From Escherichia coli (GTDB lineage Bacteria; Pseudomonadota; Gammaproteobacteria; Enterobacterales; Enterobacteriaceae), in NCBI RefSeq assembly GCF_044324785.1, contig NZ_CP172127.1: 64,000 bases of DNA; one strand, written 5' to 3'. The translations under genes were made by a program, and so were the position numbers. Shown piece after piece: positions 26,035 through 58,321 of the stretch (the first letter of the stretch is position 1; every line of letters starts with the position of its first letter). Under the pieces are notes generated by a model, which was given only the letters and a program-made list of their open reading frames with translations, had not been told where the DNA came from and made no database searches.

Positions 26035-26957
26035 CGCTGGCGATTGACAAAACGGCGGCGCTGCTCGTCGTTCATAAAGGTCCAGGCAATAAAGCGACTC
26101 TGCTTTTGCCCCTGGGCCATCTCTTTTTTAACCACCTTCACCGCGCCCACGTCCGTCAGGGCACGATACAACGGCGGTAAGTTTTCACCACGAGATACCA
26201 GTGAGGTAAACCACATCACCTGCTTCGCGAAGCCTTTGCTCTCTTCAATCATCTTTTTGATAAAGGTGACTTCACCGCCTTCACACCACAACTCCTGTTG
26301 CTGGCCGCCAAAGTTCAGTGCATCGTCTTTGTTTAGCCCCAGGTTACGGCGTTTACGTTCACTACCTGCCCGTGCCGCAGCGGCGGAATCGTGGAATGGC
26401 GGGTTACACAAGGTCGCGTCGTATTGCTCGTTTTTATGGATGATGCCGTTAAAAATCGCCCCACTCTCTTTTTGCCGACGCAGACGAATGGCGCGGTTAA
26501 GCCCCGGATTAGCACTGATGATCGCCTGCGCACTGCTTAACGCCTGGCTGCTGGTTTCACTACCAGTAAAACGCCAGCCATATTCATGTACGCCAATCAG
26601 CGGGTAAATACAGTTCGCACCAACGCCGATATCCAGAATGCTGGCATTAGCTGGAATTGTTCCGCTTGCTTCTGCCAGTAAATCGGCAAGGTGATGAATA
26701 TAATCCGCCCGGCCCGGTACTGGTGGGCAGAGAAAACCGTCGGGGATATCCCAGTTCGCTACGGCGTAAAAATGGGCCAGCAACGCCTTATTGAGCGCCT
26801 TCACCGCCAGCGGATTGGCAAAGTCTACGCTTTGCTCCCCGGCGGGTGTAAGCGTGAGGAATTGCCTGAGTTCAGGATTGACCTGACAAAGCGTGGCGAG
26901 ATCGTAGCGGCTGTGATGACGGTTGCGCGGATGCAACCCCGGTTTCTGGGCGGACAT
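26031..26957 (-). CDS. rlmF: 23S rRNA m6A1618 methyltransferase RlmF
   Basis: ORF 26031..27038 (-); start [12 protein letters not shown] at 26957 (308 aa); SAM-dependent MTase motifs. Confidence 0.85.
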
Positions 26958-33699: not shown

Positions 33700-34662
<963 letters not shown>

Positions 34663-34689: not shown

Positions 34690-36840
34690 TTAACGCCGCC
34701 GACGGCGTGGGGATTTCGTTTTTTCTTTCTTTTTAACTATACCTTCAGGGACTTCCGGTTGCTCTATCGGAAATACCGGTAATGCATCCAGTAGCCGCTT
34801 GCCATAATTTTTGGTCAGCAAGCGTTTGTCGTAAATCACCACTTCGCCCCAGCAACCGTGGCTTCGAATCAGTCGCCCAACCTGCTGAATCAGGTTAAAC
34901 GAGGCGCTCGGCAGGCTTTGCACCTCAAACGGATAGCGGTTGAGGCTTTTCAGCCATTCTCCTTCGGTGATCACCACCGGGCTGTCGATGGGCGGAAAAG
35001 CGATTTTGTGGATATGCACCTGGCTGAGCAGATCGCCTTTCAAATCAAGCCCTTCGGCAAATGACTGCAAGCCCACCAGCACGCTACGCTCACCGTTGGC
35101 AACGCGTTTGCGGTGCAGTTCAACTAAACGGTAACGCGGCTGATCGCCCTGCACCAGCAACATCAGGCGTAAATCCGTCACATAGTCGAGAAACCGCTGC
35201 ATCGCCCGTCCGCTGGCAAACAGTACCAACATACCGAGATGTTTTTTGCTCTCCACCTGTTTACGGAAAAAGGCCGCCATTTCGGCAATGTGCTGCTCTT
35301 CGTTGTCGATGGAAGGCTCAACGCGCATCCGGGGAATAACAATTTTGCCCTGTTCGCAGTGGTTAAAGGGCGAATCCAGCGCCACAAAGCGGTCGCCCGC
35401 TTTCTCTTTCAGCCCGCTCATCTCCTGCAAACGCGAAAAACTGTTCAGCGAACGCAAGGTTGCGGAAGTGACAATAATGTGCGGAATACTGCGCCACAGC
35501 AGCCTTTCCAGCTGATCGCTGACACGAATACCCACGCAGTGAAACCAGAGATGCAGCTGCCCTTCGCGCTCTTCCCGCGTCGCCCATTTGGTCACCGGCG
35601 CACCGGAAGATTGCGCCAGAGACGCCAGCCGCCAGAGTTTGCTTTGCGCCTCGAACATCCCCAGCGCGCGGTTCATCTGCAAAATCAACCGATGCAGACG
35701 TACAATGTCATGGCTGCCGGTTTTCTCACTTAAATCGTTAAGAAATAACTCCGCCAGACCACGCAGCATCTCGGTGAGTTTTGCCAGCCGTTGGCAGATC
35801 TCCAGCACTTCATCAGGCAGTTCGCCCATCGCAAAACGGTGCTCTGCCTCCTGCCCGGCAGGCATGTAGAGGTTGAGAATGTTGTTTAACGAGGCGATAA
35901 GCTCATACAACTCTTCACAATGGGCATTCAAACGCTCGGGGATCGCCAGCGGAGGGATGGTCTTCGGGCGAAACTGCTCCATACAGGTAGCGACCAGTTT
36001 CGTGAACAAGTCCAGCTGTAGCCGATACCAGGGCGCGGTGATTTCGGCGCTCATCTCCAGCGCATCCCGTGCCACATCCGGCAGGTGATGACCTTCGTCC
36101 AGCACCAGCAGTAAATTTTTCGGGTCAGGCAATACGGCTTCGCTTTCCATCGCCGCCATCACCAGCGCATGGTTTGCCACTACAACTTCCGCTTCCTGAA
36201 TTTCCCGACGAGCGACAAAAAACGGGCATTCGCGATAGTAATAACAGTTGCGGTTGAGGCAGCTGGCTTTGTCGGTACTCAACCGACGCCAGAGATCATC
36301 ATCAATGGCGATATCCGTATGATCGCGCAGACCATCCCATTTATAAGTGTCGAGATCGCCCTTCAACTTTGCACAACGCTTTTGCTCTTCCTGATTGTTC
36401 GGCGTCAGCTCGTCGTCAAGAAACGCCAGCAGATCCTGTTGCGTGGGTTCAGTACTGGCAAGCGCTGTCAGATTACGCGGGCAAACGTAGCGCCCACGCC
36501 CAAAAGCGGCAGTGAATTTAAGATCGGGAATGATCTTTTTCAGCAATGGTAAATCTTTGCTGTAGATCTGATCCTGCAACGCCACGTTGGCGGTACTCAC
36601 CACCAACGTTTTTTGCTCTTCGCGGGCAATGGCGATGCCGGGAATCAAATAGGAGAGCGTTTTCCCAACGCCGGTGGGTGCTTCAATCGCCAGATGCCGC
36701 CCTTCTTCTCCGGCCAGCGTTTTGGCGACGTCCGCAATCATCTGCCGCTGCGGCGCACGGGGAATAAAGTCGGGGATCTGTTCCTGAAGCGCCTTATACC
36801 AGGCGGCAATTTGCGCTTTAAGCGCGGCGGTTAATGCCAT
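34690..36840 (-). CDS. dinG: ATP-dependent DNA helicase DinG
   Basis: 716 aa; Walker A APTGVGKT; DEGH box; Fe-S cluster cysteines. Confidence 0.9.
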   Translation of the reverse strand: MALTAALKAQIAAWYKALQEQIPDFIPRAPQRQMIADVAKTLAGEEGRHLAIEAPTGVGKTLSYLIPGIAIAREEQKTLVVSTANVALQDQIYSKDLPLLKKIIPDLKFTAAFGRGRYVCPRNLTALASTEPTQQDLLAFLDDELTPNNQEEQKRCAKLKGDLDTYKWDGLRDHTDIAIDDDLWRRLSTDKASCLNRNCYYYRECPFFVARREIQEAEVVVANHALVMAAMESEAVLPDPKNLLLVLDEGHHLPDVARDALEMSAEITAPWYRLQLDLFTKLVATCMEQFRPKTIPPLAIPERLNAHCEELYELIASLNNILNLYMPAGQEAEHRFAMGELPDEVLEICQRLAKLTEMLRGLAELFLNDLSEKTGSHDIVRLHRLILQMNRALGMFEAQSKLWRLASLAQSSGAPVTKWATREEREGQLHLWFHCVGIRVSDQLERLLWRSIPHIIVTSATLRSLNSFSRLQEMSGLKEKAGDRFVALDSPFNHCEQGKIVIPRMRVEPSIDNEEQHIAEMAAFFRKQVESKKHLGMLVLFASGRAMQRFLDYVTDLRLMLLVQGDQPRYRLVELHRKRVANGERSVLVGLQSFAEGLDLKGDLLSQVHIHKIAFPPIDSPVVITEGEWLKSLNRYPFEVQSLPSASFNLIQQVGRLIRSHGCWGEVVIYDKRLLTKNYGKRLLDALPVFPIEQPEVPEGIVKKKEKTKSPRRRRR

Positions 36841-36854
36841 GAGAAAACCTGAAA

Positions 36855-36874
36855 TACTGTATAAACAGCCAATA
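36855..36874. promoter_or_regulatory. LexA (SOS) box of dinG, asymmetric type
   Basis: tactgtataaacagccaata immediately upstream of the dinG start; CTG...CAG half-sites with non-canonical spacing. Confidence 0.6.
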
Positions 36875-37010
36875 TTGTGGCATTTTTCGGTTTTCAGGGG
36901 TAATGGTTTTTCTGTTTCTGGAAAGCGGCTCGCAATAACGTTTTCTGGAAGTGAGATTTTCCCGCAGCAGAAGAAACATCATTGCGTAGTAAAAGACAAT
37001 GCACGCAGGC

Positions 37011-37292
37011 TTATTGCGCTGGTGGCCATTGCAGGGCGGTATGCAAAACACGCAGTACCGAGAGCGTATCGCCCTCCACTTGGTAGATCAGCACATAATG
37101 CGGTCTGACAACGGCTTCATGAGTGCCAGCGACTCGTCCGGCCCGATACATCTGCGGGCGTTCACAAACCTGTTCCGCAATGGCTTCAAATTGATTATCA
37201 AGGGCAATTGCCGCTTGCGGATTATCTTTACTGATGTATACCATGATTTGCTCCCTGTCAGACAGGGACATTGGCTTCCATTCCAGACGCAT
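37011..37292 (-). CDS. RelE/ParE-family toxin (ParE-like), 93 aa
   Basis: Pattern typical of ParE/RelE-fold toxins (YISKDNPQAA ... YVLIYQVEGDTLSVLRVLHTALQWP); start ATG overlaps the upstream stop (TAATG). Confidence 0.7.
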   Translation of the reverse strand: MRLEWKPMSLSDREQIMVYISKDNPQAAIALDNQFEAIAEQVCERPQMYRAGRVAGTHEAVVRPHYVLIYQVEGDTLSVLRVLHTALQWPPAQ

Positions 37293-37732
37293 TAATCCCC
37301 CTTCAACAAGGCTTTTTTACGGGCAGCAAATAGACTTTTGGCCTCTTCATGAGAGAGCGCTGGGCGTGGATCGTCAATGGCGGCCTGCACCTGCTCTCGA
37401 AACCAGGCATCATACGCGGCAGCTTCATGAGCTCGTTTTAATGCCTCTGCCCTGTCAGGTCGGGTCGTTTTCTTCTGACCATCCGGGTCGTAATTAGAGG
37501 CGTCGACTTCAAACCGGGCAATACCAACATCTTTCAGGTAGTTGACAACCGTTTCCAGCCGTTTGAACAGGCGGATTTGCCGACTGCGTTGTGCTGCAAG
37601 AGGCCGTTCAGTGTGGCCGTATTTCACGGTCAACGACCAGCCTCCCTGGGTGCCAATAACGTGTGCTGCATCCACTACGCCAGACTCAACCAGTTTATGT
37701 AAGGTTGAGTGATCGATCGTTTCTGGTGCCAT
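37292..37732 (-). CDS. putative antitoxin partner of the ParE-like toxin, atypically long (146 aa), function unknown
   Basis: Coupled to the toxin gene by a 1-nt overlap; AGAGG about 10 nt upstream of the ATG; no confident family assignment by eye. Confidence 0.55.
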   Translation of the reverse strand: MAPETIDHSTLHKLVESGVVDAAHVIGTQGGWSLTVKYGHTERPLAAQRSRQIRLFKRLETVVNYLKDVGIARFEVDASNYDPDGQKKTTRPDRAEALKRAHEAAAYDAWFREQVQAAIDDPRPALSHEEAKSLFAARKKALLKGD

Positions 37733-37768
37733 AATGCGCTAACCTCTTTGTATACAGCATGCAATTTA

Positions 37769-37909: not shown

Positions 37910-39271
37910 TTACTGCGCAGCGGCAGGTTTACGCGGACGGCGGCGACGTTGTTGTTCGCCTGCCGGTTTGGCATCGCCGAGACGACGAGACGGTTTTTCT
38001 GCAGGTTTTGCGCTTGCAGATTTTGCACCACCTTCAGCGCGGCGTGGTTGCTGTTGACCGCGACCACCGCCTTGTCCACGACCGCCGCCACGTTGCTGGC
38101 GACCATTCTGGATCGGTTCGGCTTTGATTGACGGGTCCGGCTCATAGCCCGGAATCGCAATGCGCGGGATCTCTTTTTTCAGCAGTTTTTCGATATCACG
38201 CAGCAGTTTGTGTTCATCCACACACACCAGCGATAACGCTTCACCGGTGGCTGCGGCACGACCGGTACGCCCGATACGGTGGACATAATCTTCCGGTACG
38301 TTTGGCAGTTCATAGTTGACCACGTGCGGCAGCTCTTCAATATCCAGGCCGCGCGCAGCGATGTCAGTTGCCACCAGTACACGAATATCGCCCGATTTAA
38401 AATCGGCCAGCGCACGGGTACGCGCACCTTGCGATTTATTACCGTGGATCGCCGCACTGCGGATGCCATCTTTATTGAGCTGTTCAGCCAGATGGTTAGC
38501 GCCATGTTTGGTACGGGTAAACACCAGCACCTGCTGCCAGTTCCCTTTCCCAATCATGTGCGACAGCAATTCGCGTTTGCGTTTCTTATCAACAAAGTGA
38601 ACATGCTGGGTCACCTGATCAGACGCGGTATTGCGGCGTGCCACTTCGATTTCCAGCGGGTTGTGCAGCAGTTTTTCCGCCAGGTTTTTAATATCGTCAG
38701 AGAAAGTGGCGGAGAACAACAGGTTCTGGCGCTTCGCTGGCAGCTTAGTCAACACACGACGGATATCGTGGATAAAGCCCATATCGAGCATGCGGTCAGC
38801 TTCATCGAGGACGAGAATTTCAACCTGATCCAGCTTCACTGCATTCTGATGTTCCAGGTCCAGCAAACGTCCCGGCGTTGCCACCAGCACATCAACGCCA
38901 CCGCGCAGCTTCATCATCTGCGGGTTGATGCTGACGCCACCAAACACCACCAGCGAACGAATGTTCAGGTATTTGCTGTAATCACGGACGTTTTCGCCAA
39001 TCTGCGCCGCCAGTTCACGGGTCGGGGTAAGAATGAGCGCACGTACCGGACGACGCCCTTTGGCGTGCGGCTGGCGAGTGATCAGGTGTTGCAACAGCGG
39101 CAGCGTAAAGCCCGCTGTTTTGCCGGTACCGGTCTGGGCACTGGCCATCAGGTCGCGGCCCTCCAGCACCGCAGGGATCGCCTGCTGCTGAATAGGGGTG
39201 GGTTCACGGTAACCCTGCTCGGCAACGGCGCGCAGGATATCAGGGCTTAAACCCAAAGAATCGAAAGACAT
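37910..39271 (-). CDS. rhlE: ATP-dependent RNA helicase RhlE (DEAD-box)
   Basis: 453 aa; Q motif, Walker [13 protein letters not shown] box, RG-rich C-terminal tail. Confidence 0.9.
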
Positions 39272-56205: not shown

Positions 56206-58227
56206 TCACGACGCGGCAATAAACAACTCACGCAGCTGATGCAACTGGTCACGAATTTGCGCCGCTTCTTCGAACTCCAGATTTTGCGCGTGTTGCATCA
56301 TCAGCCCTTCCAGTTCATGGATTTTCTGCTGCAACGCTTTCGGCGACATATCCATCGGCACATTATCCGGCTCAACAATCGGTCGCGCTTTTCCTCTGCC
56401 CTTCGCTTTGGTTTTGGCAATGTTCTGCCCCAGCGCCAGGATATCGACCACTTTCTTGTTCAAGCCCTGCGGCGTAATACCGTGTTCCTCGTTGTACTTC
56501 TGCTGTTTCTCGCGGCGACGTTCGGTTTCGCCAATCGCTTTCGCCATTGACGGGGTGATCTTATCGCCGTAGAGAATCGCTTTACCGTTAACGTTACGCG
56601 CCGCACGACCAATAGTCTGGATCAACGAACGTTCAGAACGCAGGAAGCCTTCTTTGTCGGCGTCGAGGATCGCCACCAGCGAAACCTCCGGCATATCCAG
56701 ACCTTCGCGCAGTAAGTTGATCCCCACCAGCACGTCGAACTCGCCCAGACGCAAGTCGCGGATAATCTCCATACGTTCGACGGTGTCGATATCTGAGTGA
56801 AGATAACGCACGCGCTCGCCGTGTTCTTCGAGATATTCCGTGAGATCTTCCGCCATTCGCTTGGTCAGTGTGGTGACCAGCACGCGTTCGTTAATTGCCG
56901 CTCGCTGACGAATCTCCGATAGAAGATCATCGACCTGTGTCGCCACTGGCCGCACTTCGATAATCGGATCAAGCAATCCGGTTGGACGCACCACCTGATC
57001 CACCACATCGCCGCCGGATTTTTCCAGCTCGTAATTACCCGGCGTCGCCGAAACATAGATGGTTTGCGGCGCTAATGCTTCGAACTCTTCAAATTTCAGC
57101 GGACGGTTATCCAGCGCTGATGGCAGGCGGAAGCCATACTCCACCAGCGTCTCTTTACGCGCCCGGTCACCGCGATACATGCCGCCAATTTGCGGAATGG
57201 TAACGTGAGATTCATCGACCACCAGCAGCCCATCGGCAGGCAGGTAATCAAACAGCGTCGGCGGTGGCTCACCCGGTCCACGACCGGAGAGGAAGCGCGA
57301 GTAGTTCTCAATCCCGGAACAGTAGCCCAGCTCGTTCATCATCTCCAGATCAAACTGGGTACGCTGGGTCAGCCGCTGCTCTTCAAGCAACTTGTTGTTC
57401 TCCAACAGCACTTTGCGTCTGGCGGCCAGTTCTTCTTTGATCTCTTCCATCGCCTGTACGATGCGCTCGCGCGGCGTGACGTAGTGCGTTTTCGGGTAGA
57501 TGGTAAAACGTGGAATAGTGGAAACAATCTGCCCGGTGAGCGGGTCAAATAACGACAATCGTTCCACTTCCTCGTCAAACAGCTCCACGCGAAGTGCAAT
57601 GTCATCCGATTCTGCCGGGAAGATATCAATCACCTCACCACGAACGCGGAAAGTACCACGCTGGAATGCCTGATCATTACGAGCGTATTGCAGCTCCGCC
57701 AGTCGGCGCAGGATCGCGCGCTGATCGATAATCATGCCGACCGTGAGATGGAGCATCATCTTGAGATATAAATCAGGATCGCCCAGACCATAAATCGCGG
57801 AAACAGACGCCACCACAACCACATCACGCCGCTCCAGCATCGCTTTGGTAGCGGACAAACGCATCTGCTCAATATGTTCGTTTACCGAGGCATCTTTCTC
57901 AATGAAGGTGTCGGAACTCGGTACATAGGCTTCCGGCTGATAGTAGTCGTAGTAGGAGACGAAATACTCCACCGCGTTTTCCGGGAAGAACTCTTTCATT
58001 TCGCCATACAGCTGGGCCGCCAGCGTTTTGTTGGGCGCAAGTACCATGGTAGGGCGCTGAAGGTCAGCAATGACATTGGCAATGGTGAAGGTTTTCCCGG
58101 AGCCAGTCACGCCAAGTAACGTCTGGTGCGCCAGGCCATCTTCCAGCCCCTCTTCGAGACGTCGAATCGCCTCTGGCTGATCGCCAGAAGGTTTAAAAGC
58201 GGAATTCAGTTTGAACGGTTTACTCAT
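56206..58227 (-). CDS. uvrB: excinuclease ABC subunit B
   Basis: 673 aa; Walker A GVTGSGKT; helicase motifs; C-terminal UVR domain. Confidence 0.95.
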
Positions 58228-58301: not shown

Positions 58302-58321
58302 TACTGGATAAAAAAACAGTT
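58302..58321. promoter_or_regulatory. LexA (SOS) box in the uvrB promoter
   Basis: Minus-strand reading aCTGtttttttatcCAGta fits CTG-N10-CAG. Confidence 0.7.

Follow-up and report, generated by a model that had tools for sequence, protein, structure and literature searches.

The dinG gene lies on the minus strand of the window (the whole stretch of 64,000 nucleotides that was analysed), with its start codon (ATG) at 36840 and ybiB as the next gene downstream (Table 1). On the same strand, between rhlE (37910-39271) and dinG, a two-gene toxin-antitoxin module is found at 37014-37732. It encodes a 146-aa antitoxin of the PaaA2 family (Pfam PF21217) and a 93-aa toxin of the ParE/RelE family (PF05016), and this arrangement upstream of dinG is present in 324 of 5426 complete E. 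coli genomes. K-12 has a divergent ybiA gene at the same place. The 100 bp before the dinG ATG are identical to MG1655, with no differences in the operator or the core promoter, and the window diverges from K-12 only beyond -101, where ybiA is replaced by the toxin-antitoxin pair. Since the sequence is homologous to K-12 again from 101 bp before the ATG, the dinG promoter is untouched by the module. The toxin gene and dinG are separated only by a weak terminator-like hairpin (37003-37019), and transcription could conceivably run on into the LexA operator. The dinG-ybiB gene order is kept in Erwiniaceae and Dickeya and, judging from the gene arrangement, ybiB probably shares the LexA-controlled dinG transcript.

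Table 1. Features of the dinG region and the uvrB operator used for comparison (HI, heterology index; positions are those of the window)
Feature	Position	Strand	Evidence or remark
ybiB	33700..34662	-	27 nt downstream of dinG; NCBIfam YbiB equivalog, 500.8 bits
dinG CDS, 716 aa, regulated gene	34690..36840	-	NCBIfam NF008729 DinG equivalog, 1054 bits; annotated as dinG in E. coli genomes
Short 5' leader with ribosome-binding site	36841..36854	-	CAGG at 36848-36851; 80-99% conserved in Enterobacteriaceae
LexA operator (SOS box) of dinG	36855..36874	-	TTG-N10-CAG; match to the published box, HI and conservation
Consensus-like half-site	36855..36864	-	TACTGTATAA in plus-strand reading; HI 1.15; columns 88-100% conserved
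Degenerate half-site	36865..36874	-	Sense TATTGGCTGT; box position 3 (36872) is T, consensus C; HI 10.31
Extended -10 element, putative	36874..36882	-	TGcCACAAT, from the phylogenetic footprint; the operator begins at its last T
Weak -35-like hexamer, putative	36898..36903	-	TTACCC, 18 nt upstream of the -10
uvrB LexA operator (comparator)	58302..58321	-	Sense AACTGTTTTTTTATCCAGTA, CTG-N10-CAG; HI 5.24, rank 1

The operator sequence is TACTGTATAAACAGCCAATA on the plus strand, which is TATTGGCTGTTTATACAGTA on the sense strand of dinG, and its end is 14 nt from the ATG. The 20-mer and the 14-nt distance are the same as for the K-12 dinG SOS box (Lewis, Jenkins & Mount 1992; Lewis & Mount 1992). 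The initial annotation, which had quoted the 20-mer from within 36841-36880 and connected it with the described asymmetric dinG operator, was right in both respects; the sequence agrees letter for letter with the published, experimentally characterised dinG box (PMC8265657; PMC3009722 Table 4). In its passage on this operator, PMC8265657 calls LexA binding 'experimentally characterized', with reference to Lewis & Mount 1992. The dinG site is therefore an already characterised LexA operator and an ordinary finding. The 'asymmetric dinG operator' was reportedly footprinted by Lewis and Mount in 1992, as later papers recount.

A generic scan for sigma-70 promoters called no promoter at dinG, and the promoter placed here is predicted from the phylogenetic footprint. 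At the -10 the TG is invariant, the following n is free (C61/T10/A5/G5) and the hexamer is 96-100% conserved; the pattern TG-n-CACAAT therefore points to an extended -10 promoter that is immediately followed by the operator. In the -35-like hexamer there is a T at -62 in all 81 sequences and a T at -63 in 75%, while the remaining bases are not conserved. A LexA operator should overlap or abut its promoter, and the dinG box abuts the phylogenetically footprinted -10 element. As its first base is the last base of the -10, the box covers the region, approximately 7 nt downstream of the hexamer, where transcription would be expected to start.

Within E. coli, the 60 bp upstream of the ATG, which contain the operator, are identical in 5401 of 5421 complete genomes. 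The family alignment comprised 81 Enterobacteriaceae sequences, that is the window and 80 other species from more than 20 genera, and the block TGnCACAAT-A[G/T/A]TGGCTGTTTATACAGT shows almost no variation among these species. Columns -42 to -16, counted from the ATG, are 96-100% identical in the 81 sequences with the exception of the n in TGn and box position 3. Identity drops to 40-50% further upstream than about -47, and third codon positions in dinG are approximately 40-55% identical. The dinG box is thus conserved in orthologous promoters, as a LexA operator should be. Of the 81 sequences, 76 have G at box position 3, four have T and one has A. C was found at this position in none of the 81 sequences and in none of the 5421 E. 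coli genomes, but this absence was rejected as a sign of selection. It is not statistically meaningful alone because only about two substitution events, from the majority G to T and to A, have occurred in the 81 sequences.

Database entries for DinG are often longer at the N-terminus than the 716 aa found here. One with 11,659 member sequences has 761 aa, corresponding to a 45-residue extension, and the Enterobacter and Leclercia entries have 725 aa. The longer starts would put the operator and the promoter inside the coding sequence, and they are therefore probably mis-annotated start codons.

The degree of conservation raises the question of a constraint beyond or besides LexA, either a second protein bound to the CTGT-N4-ACAG palindrome or a hairpin at the 5' end of the mRNA. 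Apart from position 3, the whole 20-bp operator is near-invariant in more than 20 genera, even at spacer bases that are read only weakly by LexA, and the palindrome can give a 5-bp hairpin at the predicted mRNA 5' end. The leader does not, however, fold significantly better than shuffled sequences (z = -0.79; 41 of 200 shuffles fold equally well), and it has no match in Rfam. The left part of the block is explained by its overlap with the -10, the discriminator and the start, and the right part by the near-perfect half-site. No regulator of dinG besides LexA is mentioned in the SOS papers cited here. A second constraint of this kind is considered very unlikely.

For comparison with other LexA operators a symmetrised count matrix was made from Table 4 of PMC3009722, with 16 published E. 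coli operators and without dinG and uvrB, and every 20-mer of the window was scored with the Berg-von Hippel heterology index (HI), where a lower value is nearer to the consensus. The matrix is not the original one of Lewis 1994, and absolute HI values differ from published ones. The dinG box obtained rank 3 among approximately 64,000 positions and, with this matrix of 16 independent operators, an HI of 11.46, below the customary cut-off for LexA sites of HI 15 (PMC11002266). The value is within the range of proven weak boxes scored with the same matrix, namely polB (11.77) and dinB (9.90). These two have a similar total heterology and a graded, early derepression (PMC5999292), but they keep both CTG and CAG with mismatches spread over the box, whereas the dinG mismatches are concentrated in one half.

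The two halves of the dinG box are very different. The right half equals the best half-sites of known canonical LexA operators, and only three half-sites in the whole window are as good. The other half is poorer than all 32 training half-sites of proven operators, of which the highest value is 8.57. In the 20-bp register the plus strand has CTG at 36857-59, ten bases, and CAA at 36870-72, which corresponds to TTG-N10-CAG on the sense strand. One of the two invariant triplets of CTG-N10-CAG is accordingly missing while the 10-bp spacing is kept, and dinG is a known exception in this respect. The canonical uvrB operator shares with dinG the 20-bp dyad, the 10 bp between the triplets, the TA flanks, the AT-rich spacer and the overlap with the promoter; it differs in having the invariant CTG where dinG has TTG, and in its much lower total HI. 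The ORF downstream of the uvrB box (56206..58227) is UvrB (TIGR00631, 1111 bits), and the box is canonical as had been annotated.

The initial annotation had described the dinG site as CTG and CAG half-sites at an irregular spacing, and there is indeed a CTG at 36857-59 with a CAG six bases away, at 36866-68 (CTGTATAAACAG, 36857-36868). On this reading LexA would recognise these two triplets at a non-standard spacing. The impression of an irregular spacing has a real basis, because the half-site moved 4 bp inward, GGCTGTTTAT, has an HI of 3.86 and outscores the in-register TATTGGCTGT. This value is like that of genuine half-sites (median 3.04), half-sites of this quality occur about once per 2700 position-strands, such an off-register half is found in dinG alone among the 18 published operators, and the internal CTGT is invariant in Enterobacteriaceae. 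The CAG in question, however, is part of the spacer of the 20-bp box, and the best full-site score is obtained with the half-sites 10 bp apart. With six bases between the triplets the 10-bp half-sites would overlap by 4 bp, and the triplets would be 4 bp nearer to each other and approximately 137 degrees out of phase. Such a geometry would appear to be without precedent, as the 17 other operators in PMC3009722 are all CTG-N10-CAG. The literature also places the deviation in the triplet and not in the spacing (PMC8265657; PMC5999292), and in PMC5999292 the dinG operator has 20 bp and its deviation is at position 18.

The pattern itself is common. CTG-N6-CAG occurs 35 times in the window compared with 13.7 expected from dinucleotide shuffles, and CTG-N10-CAG 26 times compared with 13.5. 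The twofold excess of both is presumably explained by CTG and CAG being favoured codons, and bare triplet-spacing patterns are therefore poor detectors of LexA sites in E. coli coding DNA.

The register is settled by two metagenomic relatives (L085 and L093, here called lineage A), which have the canonical CTG-N10-CAG boxes TACTGGCTAAAAACACAGCT and TGCTGGCTAAAAACACAGTT in base-for-base alignment with the E. coli 20-bp register. Their spacer is GCTAAAAACA, without the internal CTGT. The DinG protein of L085 is 53% identical to that of the window, and the nearest named proteins of this lineage are from Erwiniaceae. Furthermore, GGCTGTTT is found downstream of and outside the canonical box in a Rosenbergiella-like contig, with the counterpart CCTGTTT in Erwinia amylovora, and is therefore older than the Enterobacteriaceae box. 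Recognition of triplets six bases apart is thus regarded as extremely unlikely, and the asymmetry of the dinG operator is not one of spacing: the spacing is normal and one triplet is substituted. Some contact between LexA and the internal CTGT may nevertheless occur, as far as the base sequence can indicate.

No other LexA-like site was found between dinG and rhlE (1.07 kb upstream), where the second best site has an HI of 20.5, in agreement with the annotation of a single LexA-like site upstream of dinG. A canonical box elsewhere in this region, which had been named as the finding that would overturn the interpretation, was sought and not found. Literal CTG-N10-CAG motifs at 37019 and 37391 are inside the toxin and antitoxin genes, have HI values of 22.7 and 23.5, and are attributed to chance. 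The runner-up, at 37740-37759 on the minus strand (TGCTGTATACAAAGAGGTTA), is just upstream of the antitoxin start at 37732 and contains one good half-site of the LexA type, TGCTGTATAC, without a matching second half; as such half-sites number 47 in the window, it is probably due to chance.

Two sites of comparable score were found in coding sequences. The site at 26549-26568, TGCTGGTTTCACTACCAGTA, is a literal CTG-N10-CAG with rank 2 and an HI of 11.24, slightly better than dinG, but is within the rlmF coding region and probably a chance occurrence. The site at 34774-34793 (sense TACTGGATGCATTACCGGTA, HI 12.4), in the 3' end of dinG and approximately 110 bp upstream of ybiB, was treated as chance because the third-position conservation of its codons is 0.52 compared with a background of 0.55.

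That the dinG box itself is a chance resemblance and not a functional operator, as its broken invariant triplet and the similar score inside rlmF might suggest, has a probability close to nil, given that first-order Markov simulations predict only about 0.09 sites of HI 11.46 or lower per 64 kb, that the box is promoter-proximal and invariant across a family in which neutral sites are saturated, and that the published LexA binding and damage induction (PMC8265657, PMC5999292, PMC8072944, PMC11002266) already refute it.

The site is almost certainly the dinG LexA operator, a 20-bp box of normal spacing to which LexA binds as a dimer, one half being near-perfect and the other degenerate. The sequence identity of the site with the characterised operator, its statistical distinctness, register, conservation and promoter footprint come from the present analysis, and LexA binding, damage induction and early timing from the literature. 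The annotation 'LexA-regulated' can be applied with confidence to dinG(-ybiB).

Published data on induction are available from several studies. The dinG promoter, studied as a UV-inducible promoter fusion, is described as 'early': its ED50 is low and it is fully derepressed below 10 J/m2. For LexA-dependent reporter assays the dinG operator was one of the operators engineered into the recA promoter (PMC5999292). In Salmonella the dinG box is 14 bp from the ATG, HI is 10.08 for dinG and 5.66 for uvrB, and dinG is induced 10.6-fold by nalidixic acid (PMC8072944). In E. coli treated with ciprofloxacin the maximum log2 fold change is 1.69 for dinG and 1.35 for uvrB, which is under further regulation (PMC11002266).

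Weak binding of LexA at dinG is supported, as the HI relative to uvrB and the published kinetics agree. The annotated expectation of weaker repression than at uvrB is consequently sound as regards a weaker hold of LexA, with the higher HI in both E. coli and Salmonella and the early, low-ED50 response. It does not extend to a repression that simply follows from the box: the ciprofloxacin data show that induction ratios do not simply track HI, and uvrB has its additional control.

LexA bound at the dinG box would be expected to block RNA polymerase at initiation by steric occlusion. After DNA damage, RecA-stimulated self-cleavage of LexA would free the promoter, and dinG, probably together with ybiB, would be transcribed. 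Binding is likely to rely on the good half-site and on dimer cooperativity and to be short-lived. Because full contacts are made at only one half-site LexA would leave the operator easily, and dinG would therefore be derepressed early, at low doses of damage.

Outside Enterobacteriaceae the promoters of 13 loci were aligned by anchoring on the -10 hexamer. Erwiniaceae, the accepted sister family of Enterobacteriaceae, have the same gene with the same conserved extended -10 promoter and the dinG-ybiB order of E. coli, but the box is canonical and further upstream. It was found in Pantoea ananatis, Erwinia amylovora, Mixta tenebrionis and the Rosenbergiella-like contig as TACTGTGTAAAAATACAG[G/C][C/T], that is TACTG-TGT-AAAAAT-ACAG[G/C][C/T], with HI 6.8-8.1. 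This box spans the -10 hexamer and is 12 bp upstream of the E. coli box position. Its CAG occupies the same triplet position as CTG in lineage A, TTG in E. coli and GTG in most Enterobacteriaceae. In lineage A the canonical box is located after the -10, which is also the location of the asymmetric box of Enterobacteriaceae.

In six genera outside Enterobacteriaceae and core Erwiniaceae no LexA-like box was found, namely in Yersinia enterocolitica, Serratia marcescens, Pectobacterium carotovorum, Dickeya lacustris, Izhakiella capsodis and Edwardsiella piscicida, where the best HI within the 150-250 nt upstream (depending on the locus) is above 17, and the promoter is kept. The conservation of the dinG promoter across Enterobacterales thus does not extend to the LexA box. 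The pattern of the box-less promoters is GGCTGAC, a 17-nt spacer and TGnGACAAT, and a -35-like GGCTGAC likewise precedes the TGn-hexamer by 17 nt in Yersinia, Serratia, Pectobacterium, Dickeya, Izhakiella and Erwiniaceae. After the hexamer, Yersinia, Serratia and Izhakiella have an AG, which is identical to box positions 2-3 of most Enterobacteriaceae. In some of the relatives dinG is split into two overlapping ORFs, namely in Edwardsiella piscicida (L084, GCA_000711175.1) and in L085, L086 and L087 (327 + 424 aa, 521 + 194 aa), which is due either to a frameshift, a pseudogene or an assembly error.

It is possible, if not quite probable, that dinG came under SOS control late in evolution, by the assembly of a box, more than once, on a single older promoter that was free of LexA. 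Erwiniaceae would have built theirs across the -10, and Enterobacteriaceae and lineage A directly behind it. This hypothesis is built on the 13 loci outside Enterobacteriaceae and on the assumption that Enterobacteriaceae and Erwiniaceae are sisters. In the simplest reading of the aligned promoters the degenerate half would be promoter sequence inherited from the region after the -10 that was never a CTG half-site, which would explain the asymmetry of the operator as well as its persistence. The T of Escherichia and the A of E. whittamii at position 3 would then be later changes at a place that LexA no longer reads.

An origin by slippage was also considered, in which the 16-bp palindrome GGCTGT-TTAT-ACAGTA was formed when a canonical GGCTGT-TTAT-TTAT-ACAGTA lost one TTAT. 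It was rejected, as a box of the ancestral type is found in no relative, GGCTGTTT is outside the box in Rosenbergiella, and the lineage A spacer is different.

For the window itself the result is of little consequence, since this is a textbook SOS operator. The site does illustrate that a scan for CTG-N10-CAG misses the dinG operator and that the internal CTG invites the wrong geometry, while a matrix and half-site approach finds the right register. The asymmetric box suggests why dinG is an early SOS gene with a low threshold in E. coli. The comparison with relatives provides a compact example of operator turnover, with the box after the -10 in Enterobacteriaceae, over the -10 in Erwiniaceae and absent in several families.
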